A DNA stretch of 64,000 bases from a virus. The translations under genes and the position numbers were made by a program. The notes beneath the pieces are model-generated. The model ran no database searches. It was not told the DNA's origin and worked only from the letters and a program-made list of their open reading frames with translations. The stretch is taken from positions 1 through 64,000 of the IMG/VR virus record IMGVR_UViG_3300029448_000015. One strand, written 5' to 3'. Below are positions 6,247-53,742 of this stretch, in pieces. Each line of letters opens with the position of its first letter. Position 1 is the stretch's first letter.

Positions 6247-6702
6247 ATGCTGGCAGAAGTAGTTACTTGTATTTCACTTGTTAAAGGATTAAATGATGCT
6301 ATTTCAAGTGTAAAAGAAGCAGGAGCAAATGCGTCTTCATTTGCCAATATGATAGGCAAGTACGCTCAAGCTAATGACGCAGTTATGGAGACTGAGCAAA
6401 AACATATTGGTAAATTATCTGTTCAAGATTCTATGCAGATACAGGTAGCAAAGAGACAGTTATCTACCTTTAATCAACAGCTTAAAGATTTAATGCTAAT
6501 GCAGGGACTCTCTTCAGACTACAACGAGATAATGAATCGTGTAGAGGAAAGCAGATTAGAACATGAGAAAAGATTAAAAGAAATAAAACTTAAAAAAATA
6601 CGAAGAGATAAAGAATTAAAAGAAACTTTACATATTTTGTTTTATATTTCTTTAGTTGTTGGAGTAGGTTTTTTAGCCGTATGGCTTTACTCAATAATGT
6701 AA
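6247..6702 (+). CDS. Hypothetical membrane-anchored coiled-coil protein
   Basis: Close homolog at 45779-46234; C-terminal TM. Confidence 0.75.
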   Translation: MLAEVVTCISLVKGLNDAISSVKEAGANASSFANMIGKYAQANDAVMETEQKHIGKLSVQDSMQIQVAKRQLSTFNQQLKDLMLMQGLSSDYNEIMNRVEESRLEHEKRLKEIKLKKIRRDKELKETLHILFYISLVVGVGFLAVWLYSIM

Positions 6703-12372: not shown

Positions 12373-13243
12373 TGGCTAACACCTTAAAATTTTGTTCTTG
12401 TACTTTAGGTTCTTTAACTACTTTCGTTAAAAACACTGGGCCTCTAGCATAGTTAAAGACTCTTAAATTAGGGTAACAATGATGTTTAAACTCACAATAA
12501 GAACACCCTATTGCTAATTTTCTATTTCCTAATTTACCTTCAGGGACATCTTCATAACAAAATTCTTTTGGTTCTGATTTACTAACTACTCTTTTAATAT
12601 GTTCAATCTGTTCTGCAATGTCTCCCTGAAGATTCTCATACATAGGATCTTTTTTATCTTTCAAGTCATGTTTTAAATAAGTAATGTGTCCATTCTGTTT
12701 ATCCATCGCTAACCAACCAAATTCAGTTTCATTCTCTGAATAGGCATAAGCTTTTATTTGTCCTATGTAACCAAAAGGATCGTCTTCAGCTACTTTTCTA
12801 TCTTTAAATTTTTTAAAACCAAATACTGAAGCTGATTTAACGTCAGTTAAGACACCATCTATCTTACAGTCCATAGAACCCTGAACACCTCTAACTTCAC
12901 AACGCTTTTGTTCATCAGTTACTTTATGTCCAGACATTCTAGTTAAAAACAAAAGCATTTCTTCTATGAGATGTCCGTACATAAATTTAAGTAAGGTGTA
13001 AGGCTGTAATTCTTCTGAAGGAGTTTCGTGGTATTTATTCCAAATGTATTTATCAGGTCTGCCAATTAAAGACATACGGAGTTTTCTTTTATCTTTATTA
13101 CGATCAACTAAAAATTGATTTCGCATTAACTCTTTAACTGATTCACCAAACAGTTCTATATTTTTTTCTATGTCTATTTCATCAGAAGTTTCTTTTGTAG
13201 AAAGAAGACTGTATATGTCTTCTACTAATGTGTCTGTTCCCAT
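12362..13243 (-). CDS. Cas4-like PD-(D/E)xK exonuclease
   Basis: LRMS.IG, GHL.E, G.MDC.IDG...DVKSAS, CSYCEFK..C. Homolog at 49179-50027. Confidence 0.85.
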   Translation of the reverse strand: MGTDTLVEDIYSLLSTKETSDEIDIEKNIELFGESVKELMRNQFLVDRNKDKRKLRMSLIGRPDKYIWNKYHETPSEELQPYTLLKFMYGHLIEEMLLFLTRMSGHKVTDEQKRCEVRGVQGSMDCKIDGVLTDVKSASVFGFKKFKDRKVAEDDPFGYIGQIKAYAYSENETEFGWLAMDKQNGHITYLKHDLKDKKDPMYENLQGDIAEQIEHIKRVVSKSEPKEFCYEDVPEGKLGNRKLAIGCSYCEFKHHCYPNLRVFNYARGPVFLTKVVKEPKVQEQNFKVLASEF

Positions 13244-14949
13244 GAGTCCCCCACTTTATATTCTCCGTCCAATGGACATTTTAAATTAAAACGATTACCT
13301 GCTGCTCTAATACAGCTAACTGCAAGCTTACCAAATTCTTCTGCTTTTTCTTCACTAACTTCAGATTGAATTTCATCGTGTATATTACCAACAAATTTAA
13401 AATCTATTCCCCAAAGCTTTGCATATTCATCCAACAGTACCAAAGCTTTTTTCATTACTAATGCACCTGCTGATTGTAGTAATGTATTTAATGCTGAGTG
13501 TTCTGAGCGTACAAAAAGCTGTCTCCCGTCTAACCCTTTTAGTGTTCCCTTTGATCTGACCTTTTGTACAACTCTGTCTCTAAGCTCTTTAAGTGACGGG
13601 ACACGATACAAAAATTGTTCTCTAAGAAATCTTCCATCCCCTTTGCTTCCTCCAACCACTGAACCAAGTCTTTCATCTCCTGCTCCGTACAAGAAGGCAT
13701 AGATAAAAGTTTTTGCTGTATCTCTTGATTTAAGTCCTGCAAGCTTTTGATTAAGGGAGTGTATATCTCCGTTAATAATTTCATTAGTGTACCCTTCATT
13801 ATTCATATAGTGGGCTAACATTCTCAGTTCTAAACCAGAGGCATCAACTCCGACTACTTTGTACCCTTCTTTAGCAATCCAACAAGAACGACATTCTTTC
13901 CCGTAAGGTGAATAGACTGCGGGGACTTGAGCCATATTTGGTTTAGAATGAGTAAATCTGCCAGTAACTGCACCATTAGTATTTACATACCCATGAACTC
14001 GATTGTCTTTATCTGCTACATCTAACCAACTTTGTACCTGCGCTTTTCTCTTTTGAATGGTAATGTATTCAGCAATCAGTTTAGCTTCTGGTATATCAAC
14101 ATTAGCTAACGTAGATTCATCTACAATAGGGTGATTATTATCTGTAAATTTATCAGGTTCCCATCCTGCTTTTTGTAAACAAACTGCTATCTGTTGCCTA
14201 GAAGATAAATTAAAGGGGCGATATTCTATCCTGCAAAAGTCCCCAGAAACAGTCTGCCAATCGTCACCTAAGAACTTTAAACCTACCTTACTAAACTCAT
14301 TAGTATTCTTTTTAATCTTTGGAGTAATGACTTTGATAAAAGTAAACATAGGTTTAAATGTTTTATGCACCTCATCTTCTATTGCGTATAGCTTCTCCTT
14401 AAATTCTGCTACTAAGGAAGTCGCTAAAGAGTGATCCAACAACCACCCATTGTTAATTTGTTCTTTAATTATGGACTGTACTTTGTGTTCTAGCTCGATG
14501 GAATCAGGATTAAATTCCCTTAACTCTAATTCTAATTTTTTTAGAACTTGCTCTGTAACTGCGACATCTTGCTCACAATATTTAATCATCTCACAAGATA
14601 ATTTTTCCCATTCATTATGCGAACCTTTAGGAAAGTTTAGTCTTTCTCCCCAAGCACGTAAGCTATGCCCTCCTTCTCTGGATGGGTTTGCTAGTCGAGA
14701 CAATACAAGACTGTCTAGTAATTGATAGGATGCCAGATCTACATTCCAAAGTTTCTGAAGAACAGGGAAATCAAAGGCAATGCCATTATGAGCAACAATA
14801 GTATCAACTTCGACAGTCGCTAAAGCAGCTTTAAATTCTGCTTCAGAATAAACTGTAGGAAATAGATTGGATGAACAACACCATATTCTTGTAGGTGTCA
14901 GCCCATCAGTTTCTATGTCAAGAATTAATGTGTTTAGTAATAAGTTCAT
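13225..14949 (-). CDS. polA: Family A DNA polymerase (T7-like, Tyr762 type)
   Basis: DIET exonuclease motif, DASGLELR (motif A), KTFIYAFLYG (motif B), HDE (motif C). Confidence 0.95.
   Translation of the reverse strand: MNLLLNTLILDIETDGLTPTRIWCCSSNLFPTVYSEAEFKAALATVEVDTIVAHNGIAFDFPVLQKLWNVDLASYQLLDSLVLSRLANPSREGGHSLRAWGERLNFPKGSHNEWEKLSCEMIKYCEQDVAVTEQVLKKLELELREFNPDSIELEHKVQSIIKEQINNGWLLDHSLATSLVAEFKEKLYAIEDEVHKTFKPMFTFIKVITPKIKKNTNEFSKVGLKFLGDDWQTVSGDFCRIEYRPFNLSSRQQIAVCLQKAGWEPDKFTDNNHPIVDESTLANVDIPEAKLIAEYITIQKRKAQVQSWLDVADKDNRVHGYVNTNGAVTGRFTHSKPNMAQVPAVYSPYGKECRSCWIAKEGYKVVGVDASGLELRMLAHYMNNEGYTNEIINGDIHSLNQKLAGLKSRDTAKTFIYAFLYGAGDERLGSVVGGSKGDGRFLREQFLYRVPSLKELRDRVVQKVRSKGTLKGLDGRQLFVRSEHSALNTLLQSAGALVMKKALVLLDEYAKLWGIDFKFVGNIHDEIQSEVSEEKAEEFGKLAVSCIRAAGNRFNLKCPLDGEYKVGDSWEQTH
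13539..13784 (-). CDS. Candidate nested gene in +1 frame of polA (81 aa, helical)
   Basis: SD-like GAAGGG 7 nt before ATG; same ORF with GAGGAG in phage B polA (50629-50880). Confidence 0.55.
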   Translation of the reverse strand: MKLLTEIYTPLIKSLQDLNQEIQQKLLSMPSCTEQEMKDLVQWLEEAKGMEDFLENNFCIVSRHLKSLETELYKRSDQREH

Positions 14950-45778: not shown

Positions 45779-46234
45779 ATGATAGCAGAAGTAGCAGCCT
45801 GTATTTCGCTTGTTAAAGGTTTAAACGATGCTATATCAGTAGCTAAAGAAGCTAGTGGAAATGCTTCTGCTTTTGCAAATATTGTAGGAAAGTTTGCTAA
45901 AGCTAATGATGCAGTTTTAGAAACAGAAGCAAAGCATGTTGGAAAGATGACTGTTCAAGATTCTTTACAACTTCAAGTAGCTAAAAGACAACTTACTACT
46001 TTTAATCAACAGTTAAAAGATATGATGTTAATGCAAGGATTAGCAGGTGATTATCAAGAGATAATGAATCGTGTTGAAGAATCTAGACTTGCTCACGAAA
46101 AACGTATTAAACAACTTAAACTAGCAAAGCTTAAAAGAGATAAAGAACTTAAAGAAGTACTACAAGTTTTAGGTTATTTTACTTTAATTGTTTCTCTTAT
46201 TGGATCTATTATTTTTATTTATATGGTAGTTTAA
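45779..46234 (+). CDS. Hypothetical membrane-anchored coiled-coil protein
   Basis: Close homolog of 6247-6702. Confidence 0.75.
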   Translation: MIAEVAACISLVKGLNDAISVAKEASGNASAFANIVGKFAKANDAVLETEAKHVGKMTVQDSLQLQVAKRQLTTFNQQLKDMMLMQGLAGDYQEIMNRVEESRLAHEKRIKQLKLAKLKRDKELKEVLQVLGYFTLIVSLIGSIIFIYMVV

Positions 46235-50040: not shown

Positions 50041-50373
50041 TTATTTCTTGTGATGTTTTATAAAATGAAATCCTCCTTTTGCAGAGGGTCTTAATGCAAC
50101 AACACCTAATTCTTTTTGTATCTCTGAGCGTTTCTTGGGCTTATAATTAGTTTTAACATCTATAAATTTAATTTCTCCTGTATCTGAAATAGCAATTAAA
50201 TCTATAGGGCCAGTACATTCACTGTTTTTAAATACTTTAAAATTATTTTCTATTAACCATATAACAGCTTTATACTCAGTAATATCTCCTATAGAGCAAG
50301 TAGATAGTTTACTTGAAGGTTCAGTAATCTTAGTGAGTTTCACTCCAGTTTTTCCCAACCTTATACTCCCCAT
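50041..50373 (-). CDS. Small PD-(D/E)xK nuclease (possible free-standing homing-type endonuclease)
   Basis: GD.TE..A..WL....F.VF.N....GPIDLI.......DVKT. Confidence 0.65.
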   Translation of the reverse strand: MGSIRLGKTGVKLTKITEPSSKLSTCSIGDITEYKAVIWLIENNFKVFKNSECTGPIDLIAISDTGEIKFIDVKTNYKPKKRSEIQKELGVVALRPSAKGGFHFIKHHKK

Positions 50374-52072
50374 CTAAAGGACATCTAAGCTTTAAAAGCT
50401 CACCTGCTTGTATAATACATTCTACTCCTAACTTACCTACAGTATCAGCCATATCTTCTTTTACTTCTATTTGCCATTCATCATGAACATTAGCTACAAA
50501 ATGAGCATCTATATTATGTAACTTTTCATTTAAAAGAATTAAAGCTTTCTTCATTACAATAGAACCTGCTCCCTGTAGTAAAGTATTCAAAGCTGAATGT
50601 TCACTTCTAATTATTAACTTGCGTCCATCTAATGCTTTAATGAATCCTTTCCGTGCTTCTCTGCTAACTCTTGTTTTAAGATCATTGAATGATGGGAGAT
50701 TATTAATAAATGATTTTCTAAGGTGTGCACCAGTACGTTTAGTTCCTCCGAGAATCTCCCCAAGTCTTGAATCTCCTGCTCCGTAGAGTAATGCATAGAT
50801 GAAAGTCTTTGCCTGATTTCTTGATTCAAGCCCTGCAAGTCTTTGATTAGTGGAGTGTATGTCTCCATTAACGATTTCATTTACATACTCCTCATCATTC
50901 ATGTAGTGAGCTAACATTCTTAATTCTAATCCACTAGCGTCTACACCAACTAATTTATAATTAGGTTTAACAATCCAACAAGATCTACATTCTTTACCAT
51001 ACTTACTATACACACTAGGAGTTTGTGCTAGGTTAGGATTTCTATGGGTCATCCTACCAGTAATAGTTCCATTATGATTTACAAACCCTCTAACTCTATT
51101 ATCATCTTCTACATCAGATAACCAAGAATCTACTTGGGCTATTCTTTTTTGGAGCATTAAAAACTCAGCTAATATTTTAGCTTCTTTAATATTTTTAATA
51201 GATGCTAATATTTTTTCATCTACTTTAGCTTGTCCGGTAGGCGTAAATTCTTTTGGTTTCCATCCTAAATCTTGTAGACGTTCACCAATTTGTTTTCGTG
51301 AACCGGGATTAAATTCTGTTTCTATTACTCTCGTAATAAAAGTTTGTTGTTCAATTAAATTAAATTCTTTATCTGTTAATCGTACATTAGTACCATAATT
51401 AGTCTTACCTGTTTTTAATAACTTTTTAAGTTTATTATGGCGTGGGAATATTTTTAATACTTCTTTAGCAGGTAAAAATACTTTTCTTATTTGTCTTTGA
51501 ATCTCACTCATTCTTTCATTTAAAGTAGCAACTAACTTCATAGCTTCTTCTATGTTAAAAAGAAAACCATAGTTTCTTTGTTCATTCATAATCTTAGCTA
51601 CTGCGTGCTCTATCTCAACACTTTGTCGAGAGAACCCTAGAGATTCTTGCTTTAATCTTTCATAGACTTTGTAATTCAATAAGACATCTTGTTCGCAATA
51701 CTTCAGCATATCAGGAGTAAACTTACTGTATTCATGAAAATCTATTTTGTGACTCTTTAATATATACCCCCATCTTTCTAACCCATGTCCCCCTTCTCTT
51801 ACTGGATTAAAAAGACGGGATAAAACTAATGTATCTACTATTATTTTATTTGATAAATCTATAGAGGTAAGATTTTTTATTACAGGTATATCATATCCTA
51901 TAATGTTATGACCAATTAAAGTACCTGCCTCCATTAAAGCAGAAAGCCCTTGTTCTAATTCAGAAGGGCCATAAGATTTTTGTTCTTGAGTAGAGGTGTC
52001 TAAAATAGAAAGACACCAAAGTTTAGTAGCTTCTATGCCATCTGTTTCTATATCAAATACTAAAGATTTCAT
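50330..52072 (-). CDS. polA: Family A DNA polymerase (T7-like, Tyr762 type)
   Basis: FDIET, DASGLELR, KTFIYALLYG, HDE. Confidence 0.95.
   Translation of the reverse strand: MKSLVFDIETDGIEATKLWCLSILDTSTQEQKSYGPSELEQGLSALMEAGTLIGHNIIGYDIPVIKNLTSIDLSNKIIVDTLVLSRLFNPVREGGHGLERWGYILKSHKIDFHEYSKFTPDMLKYCEQDVLLNYKVYERLKQESLGFSRQSVEIEHAVAKIMNEQRNYGFLFNIEEAMKLVATLNERMSEIQRQIRKVFLPAKEVLKIFPRHNKLKKLLKTGKTNYGTNVRLTDKEFNLIEQQTFITRVIETEFNPGSRKQIGERLQDLGWKPKEFTPTGQAKVDEKILASIKNIKEAKILAEFLMLQKRIAQVDSWLSDVEDDNRVRGFVNHNGTITGRMTHRNPNLAQTPSVYSKYGKECRSCWIVKPNYKLVGVDASGLELRMLAHYMNDEEYVNEIVNGDIHSTNQRLAGLESRNQAKTFIYALLYGAGDSRLGEILGGTKRTGAHLRKSFINNLPSFNDLKTRVSREARKGFIKALDGRKLIIRSEHSALNTLLQGAGSIVMKKALILLNEKLHNIDAHFVANVHDEWQIEVKEDMADTVGKLGVECIIQAGELLKLRCPLDGEYKVGKNWSETH
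50629..50880 (-). CDS. Candidate nested gene in +1 frame of polA (83 aa)
   Basis: GAGGAG 7 nt before ATG; C-ending polA codons concentrated across the overlap; homolog in phage A. Confidence 0.6.
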   Translation of the reverse strand: MKSLMETYTPLIKDLQGLNQEIRQRLSSMHYSTEQEIQDLGRFSEELNVLVHTLENHLLIISHHSMILKQELAEKHGKDSLKH

Positions 52073-53742
52073 AATTCAAACTCATCATTATCATCATTAT
52101 CATCTAAGAAAACTTCAAGTAATCTCCCTGTAGTTTTGTCATATCTTAGATGTGCAGCCATACCAACATCTCCAGTGTATCTAGACTTTAATATTCTTAA
52201 ATGTGTAGTTAAAGCTTCAACTGGATCATCAGCTTGCTGATTTCTTTCTAAAGCTATAACACAATCTGATATCTGTGCTATACCTCCAGAGCCTCTTAGA
52301 TGACTAAGCCCTACAGTAGCTCCATTCTCATGTCCTCTATTACCTTCTAGACGTTTTAAATGAGAGACTAGTAAAACACCTGCTCCAGTTTCTTCTACTA
52401 TCTTACGGAGATCAGTCATCATTCTATCTATTAATGCACGTTCATTAGTTTGTTCAGCACTGGCAGATACAATCATTTGTAAGTGATCTAAAATAATCCA
52501 TTTACAATCACAACCTACAATCATATATTTTATTTTGGCTAAGATGTCATCAAAGTCACTAGCTCCAAAATGTGCATGAACCCACATTCTATTTTTATTA
52601 TTACCACCTAATACTTTTTGAGCTAACTTTTCATAATTCTCCTGACCATATTCATCTCTAATATGTTCTATATCTAATTTTTTATTAGCTTCTATAGATA
52701 GAATACCATCAGCAGTTCTTGTCCAATCTTCTTCTAGAGCTACAATACCAAGATTGTCTTCAGTTCTAGTAATAAGCCAGTGTTCTATTTCTCTAATAAT
52801 ACTTGTCTTACCTAGCCCTGTACCTCCAGTAAATGTAACTAACTCTCCTTGTCTAAGACCAAATAATTTTTCATTTAAACCCTGCCAAGGGTAAGGAATA
52901 GAATCTTTCTTTTCACGTTTAAATAACTTATCAAAGTTATCTGATATGTTTAATACTCCAGAAGGAGTGTAGATACTTGAAGCCCACCAAGAACTTACAT
53001 ATAAATTATGTAACCCTTGGCGTAGCATATCATTAGCATCTTTATACTCTTCAGGCATTTGAAGTATCTTTGCTTTGCCGGGAGTAATTAACTTAGCTAC
53101 TGCTCTAGCAGCTTTTCTACCTTCCTTATCATTATCAAAGGAAATAATAATAGTTTGAAACTTTTCAATAAATTCTAAGTTAGCTTTGAAATCTCTTTCG
53201 GCCCCTGCAGCACCATTCTTAATTGATACTACTGGATACTGACTACCCATTAATTCATAAGCAGCCATTGCATCACATTCACCTTCAACTACTGTTAGAA
53301 ATCTACCTCCTTCTTGGCATAGCTGTTGACCAAAGAACCCTGTACTTCTACTATCACCTTCCCAAGCAAAGTTTTTAGGATCAGTGCCTATAGTCTTTCT
53401 AACTTTATAACCTGAAATTTCATTTGCGGTATAGTAAGGATAGTAATGTTTAACTACTTCACCATCTTCTTTAATGGCTTTAACTCCATACTTCTTAGCA
53501 GTTTGTAAGCTAATAGATCTATCAGTTAGTTCTATAAACTCACCTTCAACAACATTAACTTTATTATTTTTATATTGTTTAAAGTCTGCTACAGAGTTAT
53601 CTCCATTCATTGATTCCTCATAATTTTTAAATCTTGTATTACAAGAAAAACAAAATGCAGAACCATCATCATTAATTCCACAAGCATCACTACTTGCACA
53701 ATCAGGACTAGGACAGGGTTGATGTCTTTTTATAAAAGCCAT
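52069..53742 (-). CDS. DNA primase-helicase (T7 gp4-like)
   Basis: C..C zinc finger, EGECDA, FDND, GGTGLGKT, LDHL, LRGS. Confidence 0.95.
   Translation of the reverse strand: MAFIKRHQPCPSPDCASSDACGINDDGSAFCFSCNTRFKNYEESMNGDNSVADFKQYKNNKVNVVEGEFIELTDRSISLQTAKKYGVKAIKEDGEVVKHYYPYYTANEISGYKVRKTIGTDPKNFAWEGDSRSTGFFGQQLCQEGGRFLTVVEGECDAMAAYELMGSQYPVVSIKNGAAGAERDFKANLEFIEKFQTIIISFDNDKEGRKAARAVAKLITPGKAKILQMPEEYKDANDMLRQGLHNLYVSSWWASSIYTPSGVLNISDNFDKLFKREKKDSIPYPWQGLNEKLFGLRQGELVTFTGGTGLGKTSIIREIEHWLITRTEDNLGIVALEEDWTRTADGILSIEANKKLDIEHIRDEYGQENYEKLAQKVLGGNNKNRMWVHAHFGASDFDDILAKIKYMIVGCDCKWIILDHLQMIVSASAEQTNERALIDRMMTDLRKIVEETGAGVLLVSHLKRLEGNRGHENGATVGLSHLRGSGGIAQISDCVIALERNQQADDPVEALTTHLRILKSRYTGDVGMAAHLRYDKTTGRLLEVFLDDNDDNDEFEL

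Follow-up and report, generated by a model that had tools for sequence, protein, structure and literature searches.

A probable protein-coding gene overprinted on the motif-B region of a marine phage DNA polymerase gene

Whether the DNA that encodes a catalytic part of a phage DNA polymerase encodes a second, conserved protein at the same time is the question raised by the locus described here. The locus lies in the first 64 kb of the 72,476-base IMG/VR virus record IMGVR_UViG_3300029448_000015 (positions 1 to 64,000; hereafter the window), which contains two diverged T7-like replication modules, both on the minus strand, each with a gene for a family A DNA polymerase (polA); these genes are designated copy A and copy B. 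Within copy B, a Shine-Dalgarno (SD) motif and an ATG open a short open reading frame (ORF) that is read in the +1 frame of polA; a homologous ORF occupies the same place in copy A. A first-pass annotation of the window, made from the DNA letters and a list of their ORFs, had singled out this nested ORF as a case of dual coding.

This paper describes the nested ORF in the window and in the polA genes of related phages. The comparison of polA genes, in which synonymous sites are otherwise saturated, showed selection that keeps the frame open, keeps the start codon and the SD, and conserves the amino acid (aa) sequence. The nested ORF is probably (at roughly 85%) a genuine protein-coding gene that was made by overprinting in the fingers/motif-B part of phage polA, and its product would represent a new protein family that arose by a known kind of mechanism. 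The dual-coding proposal of the first-pass annotation is supported by stop avoidance, by local synonymous constraint, by conservation of the +1-frame protein, and by conservation of the ATG and SD, with relatives that lack the ORF serving as controls.

The nested ORF in the two polymerase genes of the window

The GAGGAG-N7-ATG signal that had been reported to open an 83-aa +1-frame ORF inside polA was found as described, the nucleotide sequence and the translation being in agreement (Table 1), and the frame is the +1 frame of polA, as (52072-50880) mod 3 = 1. The copy B SD is among the best SD matches of the 38 window starts that were inspected. In copy A the first ATG is without an SD, and the second ATG (13784) coincides with the aligned conserved start and has the SD-like sequence GAAGGG 7 nt upstream (13792..13797); the true start of copy A is probably this second ATG, which gives an 81-aa product. 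The nested products of copies A and B share 50.7% identity across 75 aa (E 2e-19).

Table 1. Positions in the window of the two polymerase genes, of the nested ORFs and of the initiation and termination signals of copy B
Feature	Position	Strand	Remarks
T7-like family A DNA polymerase gene (polA), host gene copy B	50330..52072	minus	580 aa; from the ORF list and tblastn
Nested +1-frame ORF, copy B	50629..50880	minus	83 codons; overlaps polA codons 398-481, including motif B (RNQAKTFIYALLYGAG)
SD GAGGAG, copy B	50893..50888	minus	7 nt 5' of the nested ATG; polA reads Glu-Glu (GAG GAG)
Spacer TATGTAA, copy B	50887..50881	minus	between GAGGAG and ATG
Start codon ATG, copy B	50880..50878	minus	+1-frame TAA directly before it
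Stop codon TAG, copy B	50631..50629	minus	formed by polA Leu-Asp (TTA GAT)
Second family A DNA polymerase gene, host gene copy A	13225..14949	minus	574 aa
Homologous nested +1-frame ORF, copy A	13539..13799	minus	86 aa counted from the first ATG; same place as in copy B

The length of the open run sets this part of both genes apart. The +1 frame of copy B polA contains 74 stops in 1743 nt, and its longest open run measures 249 nt, the second longest 75 nt; in copy A the corresponding runs are 261 and 126 nt. When synonymous codons were shuffled within each gene, with the polymerase protein and the codon usage held fixed (1000 shuffles per gene), the stretch was free of stops in none of the shuffles of either copy, and the expected numbers of stops were 4.6 for copy B and 5.9 for copy A, as compared to the zero observed.

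Codon usage proved less informative. The first-pass annotation had pointed to many C-ending polA codons across the nested ORF of copy B, with a return to other codons afterwards, and had taken the G+C content of third codon positions (GC3) as a means of refuting dual coding. C-ending codons (C3) are indeed raised in copy B (14 of 84 codons inside the ORF vs 31 of 496 outside; Fisher p=0.003), and their share drops to 0-3% in windows past codon 496, but GC3 is not raised (20/84 inside vs 90/496 outside, p=0.23), and copy A displays neither effect (12/87 vs 52/487 for C3, p=0.46; p=1 for GC3). The codon anomaly is real, small and specific to copy B. Because copy A keeps the same conserved ORF with neither a GC3 nor a C3 anomaly, GC3 is a poor test of dual coding, and a normal value is not a valid refutation of it.

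Stop avoidance, initiation signals and constraint among polA relatives

For the comparative analysis, 159 polA loci from IMG/VR and nine cultured-phage stretches were gathered, the polA frame being chosen by BLASTP; L146 and L155 were excluded for having no usable ORF, and the resulting 166 polA genes were aligned. A residue at the reference column is present in 164 of the 166 genes, and the stretch tested comprised aligned columns 657-782. Across this stretch the +1 frame is open in 128 of the 164 relatives (ORF-positive genes) and closed in 30 full-length genes (ORF-negative genes), and six partial genes were unclassed. A non-redundant set at less than 75% aa identity of the polymerase comprised 57 genes, 41 of them ORF-positive and 16 ORF-negative.

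The main result is that 41 of these 57 non-redundant genes are stop-free in the stretch, where 0.9 would be expected from synonymous shuffles. The ORF-positive genes by themselves contain no stops against 144.7 expected, a comparison that is biased because these genes were selected as stop-free, the unbiased figure being 41 of 57; the 16 ORF-negative genes contain 80 stops, close to the 84.5 expected. Neither the +2 frame nor any of the three antisense frames is open over the stretch in the non-redundant set. Moreover, the effect could be recovered from single genes, since shuffling gave a probability of zero stops of at most 0.05 in 39 of the 43 ORF-positive genes tested, with the remainder of each gene fitting the null model; the exceptions are L060 (0.051), L077 (0.061), L157 (0.21), and L063 (0.26). 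The shuffles led to an expectation of 1.3-5.9 stops in the stretch for each of these 43 genes, and the 19 ORF-negative genes tested carry 2-11 stops each vs 2.6-8.6 expected.

The avoidance can be followed at the level of individual codons, in particular at Leu, Ile or Val codons that precede a purine-initial codon, which are at risk of creating a +1-frame stop. Stop-making synonyms are absent from all 313 such positions in the stretch of ORF-positive genes (Leu 0/176, Ile 0/54, Val 0/83). Outside the stretch, the same genes use them at 38-53% (Leu 734/1385, Ile 345/917, Val 360/875), and in the stretch of ORF-negative genes the range is 39-57% (Leu 40/70, Ile 16/41, Val 17/38).

Conservation extends to the initiation signals. 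Of the 41 non-redundant ORF-positive genes, 35 have a +1-frame ATG at the aligned start column, as do 2 of the 16 ORF-negative genes; the polA residue at this column varies (Asn, His, Tyr or Asp), always as a NAT codon followed by G. The Glu of the SD, four codons 5' of the start, is encoded by GAG in 28 and by GAA in 2 of the non-redundant ORF-positive genes, as compared to a gene-wide GAG share of 44%. Five genes have Lys at the SD position, which is encoded by AAG in three of them, and the resulting SD forms are GAGGAG, GAGGAA or AAGGAG, at 7-8 nt from the ATG. At the nested stop column, a stop is found in 22 of 31 genes of clades I and II, the deep clades that hold the window copies, vs 14.1 expected from shuffles.

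These counts bear directly on the possibility that nothing is translated and that the open +1 frame is no more than a consequence of the conserved aa sequence of polA in combination with codon bias. No part of polA is more conserved than this region (aa identity 0.59-0.76), Met-Asn dictates the upstream TGA, and an ATG arises easily from AAT-G, all of which would be in line with such a by-product. It is nevertheless strongly disfavoured: the shuffles, which hold both the protein and the codon usage fixed, predict stops in nearly every gene; relatives of similar motif-B sequence do carry such stops; and neither the complete absence of stop-making synonyms at the at-risk codons nor the preference for GAG over GAA at the SD is accounted for. 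Inheritance from one lucky ancestor fares no better. The median terminal branch of the polymerase tree measures 0.39 changes per site, and this, together with a codon identity of about 0.41 at identical residues outside the stretch, indicates that synonymous sites are saturated, so that common descent from one fortuitously open gene cannot account for the open frame.

Position 3 of the polA codon is position 2 of the nested-frame codon, and selection on a nested protein must therefore appear as synonymous constraint in polA. In pairwise comparisons, which are not tree-aware, codon identity at identical residues amounts in ORF-positive genes to 0.514 in the stretch vs 0.411 in the rest of the gene, and in ORF-negative genes to 0.367 vs 0.365. 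The +1 translation of ORF-positive genes has a pairwise identity of 0.352 vs 0.246±0.003 after shuffling and a BLOSUM62 score per column of 1.17 vs 0.18, and the corresponding values for ORF-negative genes are 0.218 vs 0.210 and -0.18 vs -0.19. When scanned along the gene, the excess of +1 conservation is limited to polA aa 381-494 (z of 8-26 for identity and 17-24 for BLOSUM62, vs 1-7 and 0.8-3.7 elsewhere). It persists between clades I and II, for which +1 identity is 0.389 vs 0.251 shuffled (z 29), and it is weaker toward the HTVC103P type (z 5-8). At some columns the nested residue is even more conserved than the polA residue with which it shares the DNA (L in 29 of 31 genes vs L in 16 of 31; N in 21 of 31 vs E in 10 of 31; H in 27 of 31 vs S in 20 of 31).

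The degree of conservation of the DNA itself is apparent from public marine virome contigs. At a likeness of at least 85%, contigs from many other phages pile up only at window positions 50743-50919, with a summed contig depth of up to about 1700 as compared to about 13 over most of polA (run X2), so that no other DNA of the polA gene is as strongly conserved as the 5' half of the nested ORF.

Strong conservation at the DNA level is also what would be seen if a nucleotide-level element in polA, such as an RNA structure, an internal promoter or terminator, an origin or a packaging signal, drove the synonymous constraint and the open frame were incidental to it. In agreement with such an element, the synonymous constraint lifts identity in the +2 frame as well. 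It would leave unexplained, however, why stops are avoided in one specific frame over about 85 codons, why substitutions are conservative in the +1 frame (the gain in BLOSUM62 score in the 3' window has a z of 18.6 in +1 vs 5.6 in +2), and why the ATG is retained through changes of the polA residue between Asn, His, Tyr and Asp. A conserved RNA structure was rejected on the basis of RNAalifold, which found no shared structure among 32 sequences (-0.22 kcal/mol, 4 pairs), and of a single-sequence fold with a z of -0.99. We consider a nucleotide-level element to be a very improbable explanation of these patterns.

Predicted product, distribution and genomic setting

The predicted product is about 80-90 aa long, with an isoelectric point of 4.9-8.1 (six products computed) and a grand average of hydropathy of about -0.6. 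Leu, Ile, Val and Met together make up 24-33% of its residues and are arranged in a heptad-like pattern, a hydrophobic N-terminus is absent, and the copy B product is without any Cys. AlphaFold2, supplied with 41 sequences, predicted two long helices (4-31 and 34-82) with a mean predicted local distance difference test score (pLDDT) of 93 and a predicted template modelling score (pTM) of 0.71. Searches of Pfam and PHROGs returned nothing above threshold for the nested product; membership of the Pfam family DUF7491, a coiled-coil region, was rejected at 19.3 bits (E 0.0014) against a cut-off of 30. Foldseek gave no match at E<=0.001 in PDB and BFVD, and the best score in the ESM Atlas was 0.89, under the lead level of 0.9, and a HisKA-like cluster scored 0.88.

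The group designated clade IV (L095-L143 and others, e.g., L109:2573-2914) has a higher GC content and an open +1 frame of about 114 codons with a very basic product, for which AlphaFold2 gave a different, beta-rich model (pLDDT 70.8, pTM 0.65). This ORF may be a different second protein of the same frame, or no gene. Since its model differs from that of the window copies and has a lower pLDDT, a high AlphaFold2 confidence is not automatic for +1-frame alignments from this region.

The distribution of the nested ORF was mapped on a tree from an IQ-TREE quick search, with Shimodaira-Hasegawa-like approximate likelihood ratio test support only and midpoint rooting. The ORF is present in 32 and absent from 4 genes of a 36-row marine clade that includes both window copies, present in both HTVC103P and HTVC115P, present in 8 and absent from 4 genes of the clade IV group, and absent from all six members of the HTVC019P, HTVC031P, CRP-804, CRP-113, LUZ100 and S2B clade. 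At least six gains or losses are forced on this quick tree, and the distribution is compatible with an old origin and repeated loss thereafter; as polA stayed intact throughout, repeated loss implies that the product is dispensable. The two nested copies of the window, which had been regarded as independent, turned out from the tree and the clade comparison to be orthologues within one large ORF-bearing polA lineage.

The pair L158 and L159 provides an example at closer range. Their polA genes are 85.7% identical overall and 67.8% identical in the segment aligned to window positions 50620-50910, in which L159 retains the ORF and L158 has four stops. This looks like a recombinational replacement of the nested-ORF segment alone.

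With a profile of the product, relatives were detected in at least 431 of 597 pattern-matched IMG/VR stretches, and the best 80 IMG/VR loci are all located inside polA in its +1 frame (80/80). A search of 5.8 billion proteins gave nine matches of 76-86 aa. A profile search of 1.84 billion representatives yielded 150 listed matches, and among the 16 of these that were inspected, being longer than the query or matching it away from their own N-terminus, a free-standing homologue was not found. The failure to find a free-standing copy among these, together with the location of the best 80 loci inside polA, fits birth in place by overprinting. With tblastn, the 83-aa product had no match at E<=1 in 50,697 phage records; the most similar polA of a cultured phage shares just 49% identity. 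Near-identical copies of copy B polA occur in runs that belong to 15 studies, for the most part marine and viral metagenomes; an RNA run (X20) contributed four small contig pieces, which, being contigs, are silent on expression.

The 16 inspected database proteins are of several kinds. P0031 and P0051 consist of the N-terminal part of polA running into the nested sequence, and in P0046, P0082, P0114 and P0103 the nested sequence runs back into polA. P0143 starts as polA and continues off-frame, the downstream parts of P0021 and P0075 are like neither, and the remaining seven look like longer off-frame translations. The chimeric proteins, which are joined in both directions, are most simply explained by indel errors in assemblies, and their presence in public protein sets shows that the locus confuses gene callers.

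Proteins of the first kind would also be produced by a programmed +1 frameshift from polA, which would give a truncated polymerase with a new C-terminus and in which GAGGAG would act as a prfB-like stimulator; an internal SD-like element 5' of the frame change does resemble the arrangement in prfB. At the site in question, however, polA has neither an in-frame stop nor a recognisable slippery or hungry codon, and the SD is 7 nt away from a conserved ATG, where a prfB-type site would have its SD about 3 nt upstream and would need no independent start; on these grounds a prfB-type site was rejected. Furthermore, the +1-frame TAA that directly precedes the ATG in copy B would require the shift to fall inside the ORF, the ATG is conserved though the polA residue varies, and the joins from nested sequence to polA (P0046, P0082) make both kinds of chimera look like assembly indels. 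A trans-frame product is accordingly rated as extremely unlikely, and internal initiation of a separate nested gene remains the preferred reading.

The nested gene had been put forward as undescribed, and so far this holds. The GenBank records of HTVC115P and HTVC103P have no coding sequence annotated at the nested ORF. Standard gene callers forbid nested genes, which explains why the gene is missing from the records of these cultured pelagiphages. A Pfam or PHROG family was not found, as reported above. Full-text searches of literature outside subscription journals turned up no description of the nested gene, and the passages that a term search picked out in the paper describing HTVC115P and HTVC103P (10.1101/2019.12.14.876532) make no mention of the overlap.

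With regard to the genomic setting, the nearest cultured relatives of copy B polA are those of the Pelagibacter phages HTVC115P, HTVC104P and HTVC103P, which share 49% identity with it in tblastn (E 1e-177 for the HTVC115P DNA polymerase), and copies A and B are 51% identical to each other. Comparison of the two modules as a whole gave about 50% identity for polA, 40% for the primase-helicase and 40% for a protein of 282/293 aa, and shared structural genes are few (e.g., 6247-6702 and 45779-46234, 67%). With its two modules, the record is either an assembly chimera of two related phages or a joining of two genomes. Within the copy B module, a 110-aa ORF (50041-50373) overlaps the 3' end of polA by 44 nt, and polA (50330-52072) overlaps the primase-helicase gene (52069-53742) by 4 nt; these end overlaps suggest tight translational coupling.

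Proposed working and comparison with known systems

Several observations weigh against the nested ORF being a gene. It is missing from 30 full-length relatives, some of which are close neighbours of genes that have it. Residues of polA itself account for the upstream +1 stop (TGA, from ATG AAY) and for some of the ATG frequency. Phylogenetic relatedness at synonymous sites is lost in the shuffle null, and with a background z of 1-7 along the gene the z values are somewhat inflated. The alignment used for AlphaFold2 carries covariation that is imposed by polA, and long amphipathic helices are easily predicted with confidence. Pfam, PHROGs, Foldseek and the Atlas gave no match of weight, and any assignment of function draws on the fold type and the pattern of loss. 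Finally, that the nested ORF is translated is something we infer from the comparison of genes.

If the nested ORF is a gene, ribosomes would initiate inside the polA mRNA, at the SD-N7-ATG and without depending on the translation of polA, and the product would be a soluble, mildly acidic hairpin of two helices forming a coiled coil, as in the predicted structure. It would be made alongside the replication proteins, at a level probably set by ribosome traffic on polA. The product could be a putative dispensable accessory factor that acts through protein-protein binding and that may modulate the replisome or deal with the host. It is not expected to be a core replication enzyme, given that no motif in it looks catalytic and that it has been lost several times with polA intact. 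Repeated loss is what one typically sees in accessory proteins, whether these modulate the replisome or act on the host, and not in core enzymes.

A more far-reaching reading, which we regard as doubtful, is that the nested gene is ancient and predates the split of HTVC103P-type pelagiphages from the large uncultured marine polA clades, that its coiled-coil product binds the polymerase or the co-expressed primase-helicase as a built-in regulator or a processivity or assembly factor, and that the frame was remodelled into a different, basic and beta-rich protein in the higher-GC clade IV. Were this to be true, the shared frame would have shaped the evolution of the motif-B fingers in a much-used marker gene of marine viruses.

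An overprinted gene at this site would represent a clean and well-controlled case of de novo protein birth in double-stranded DNA (dsDNA) phages, within the part of an essential replication gene that codes for the catalytic domain, with natural loss lineages as controls. About 85 motif-B codons would be doubly constrained, which would bias synonymous-site clocks and estimates of the ratio of nonsynonymous to synonymous rates (dN/dS) in the stretch, and this is relevant to work in which polA motif B serves as a marker or in which selection on it is estimated. As cultured carriers exist (HTVC103P and HTVC115P on Pelagibacter HTCC7211), translation and function are directly testable.

Among known proteins, DUF7491 and the HisKA-like hairpins share the two-helix coiled-coil character of the predicted product, and the nested ORF is a member of neither. 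The classic phage gene nested in a +1 frame is Rz1, located in Rz (in lambda; 18.7 in 18.5 in T7). Like the nested ORF, Rz1 is a short gene contained entirely in a longer one, whose +1 frame it occupies; it is equipped with an SD and a start of its own and is conserved along with its host gene. Rz1, however, is an outer-membrane lipoprotein of the lysis cassette that works with the product of its host gene, whereas the nested product has no signal peptide or lipobox and its host gene encodes a replication enzyme; an embedded spanin of the Rz/Rz1 type was rejected, as the copy B product has no Cys or hydrophobic N-terminus and polA is the host gene. Influenza A PB1-F2 is an accessory protein of about 87-90 aa with an amphipathic helix, encoded in the +1 frame of the polymerase gene PB1 and often truncated. 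It resembles the predicted product, which would likewise be a helical accessory protein of about 85 aa, encoded in a polymerase gene but in its +1 frame, that some lineages have lost repeatedly. PB1-F2 belongs to an unrelated animal RNA virus and is produced through leaky scanning and not by SD-driven internal initiation, and no homology is claimed. Overprinted genes of phiX174 and other Microviridae (B in A, E in D, and K) and other viral overlapping genes (reviewed in PMC8227390) are comparable to the nested ORF in that a new protein is derived from an alternative frame of an older gene, that both frames are constrained, and that the synonymous rate of the older gene is lowered. Those overlaps occur in very small genomes under packaging limits, whereas the nested gene is found in dsDNA podophages of 40-55 kb, within the catalytic-domain coding region of polA.

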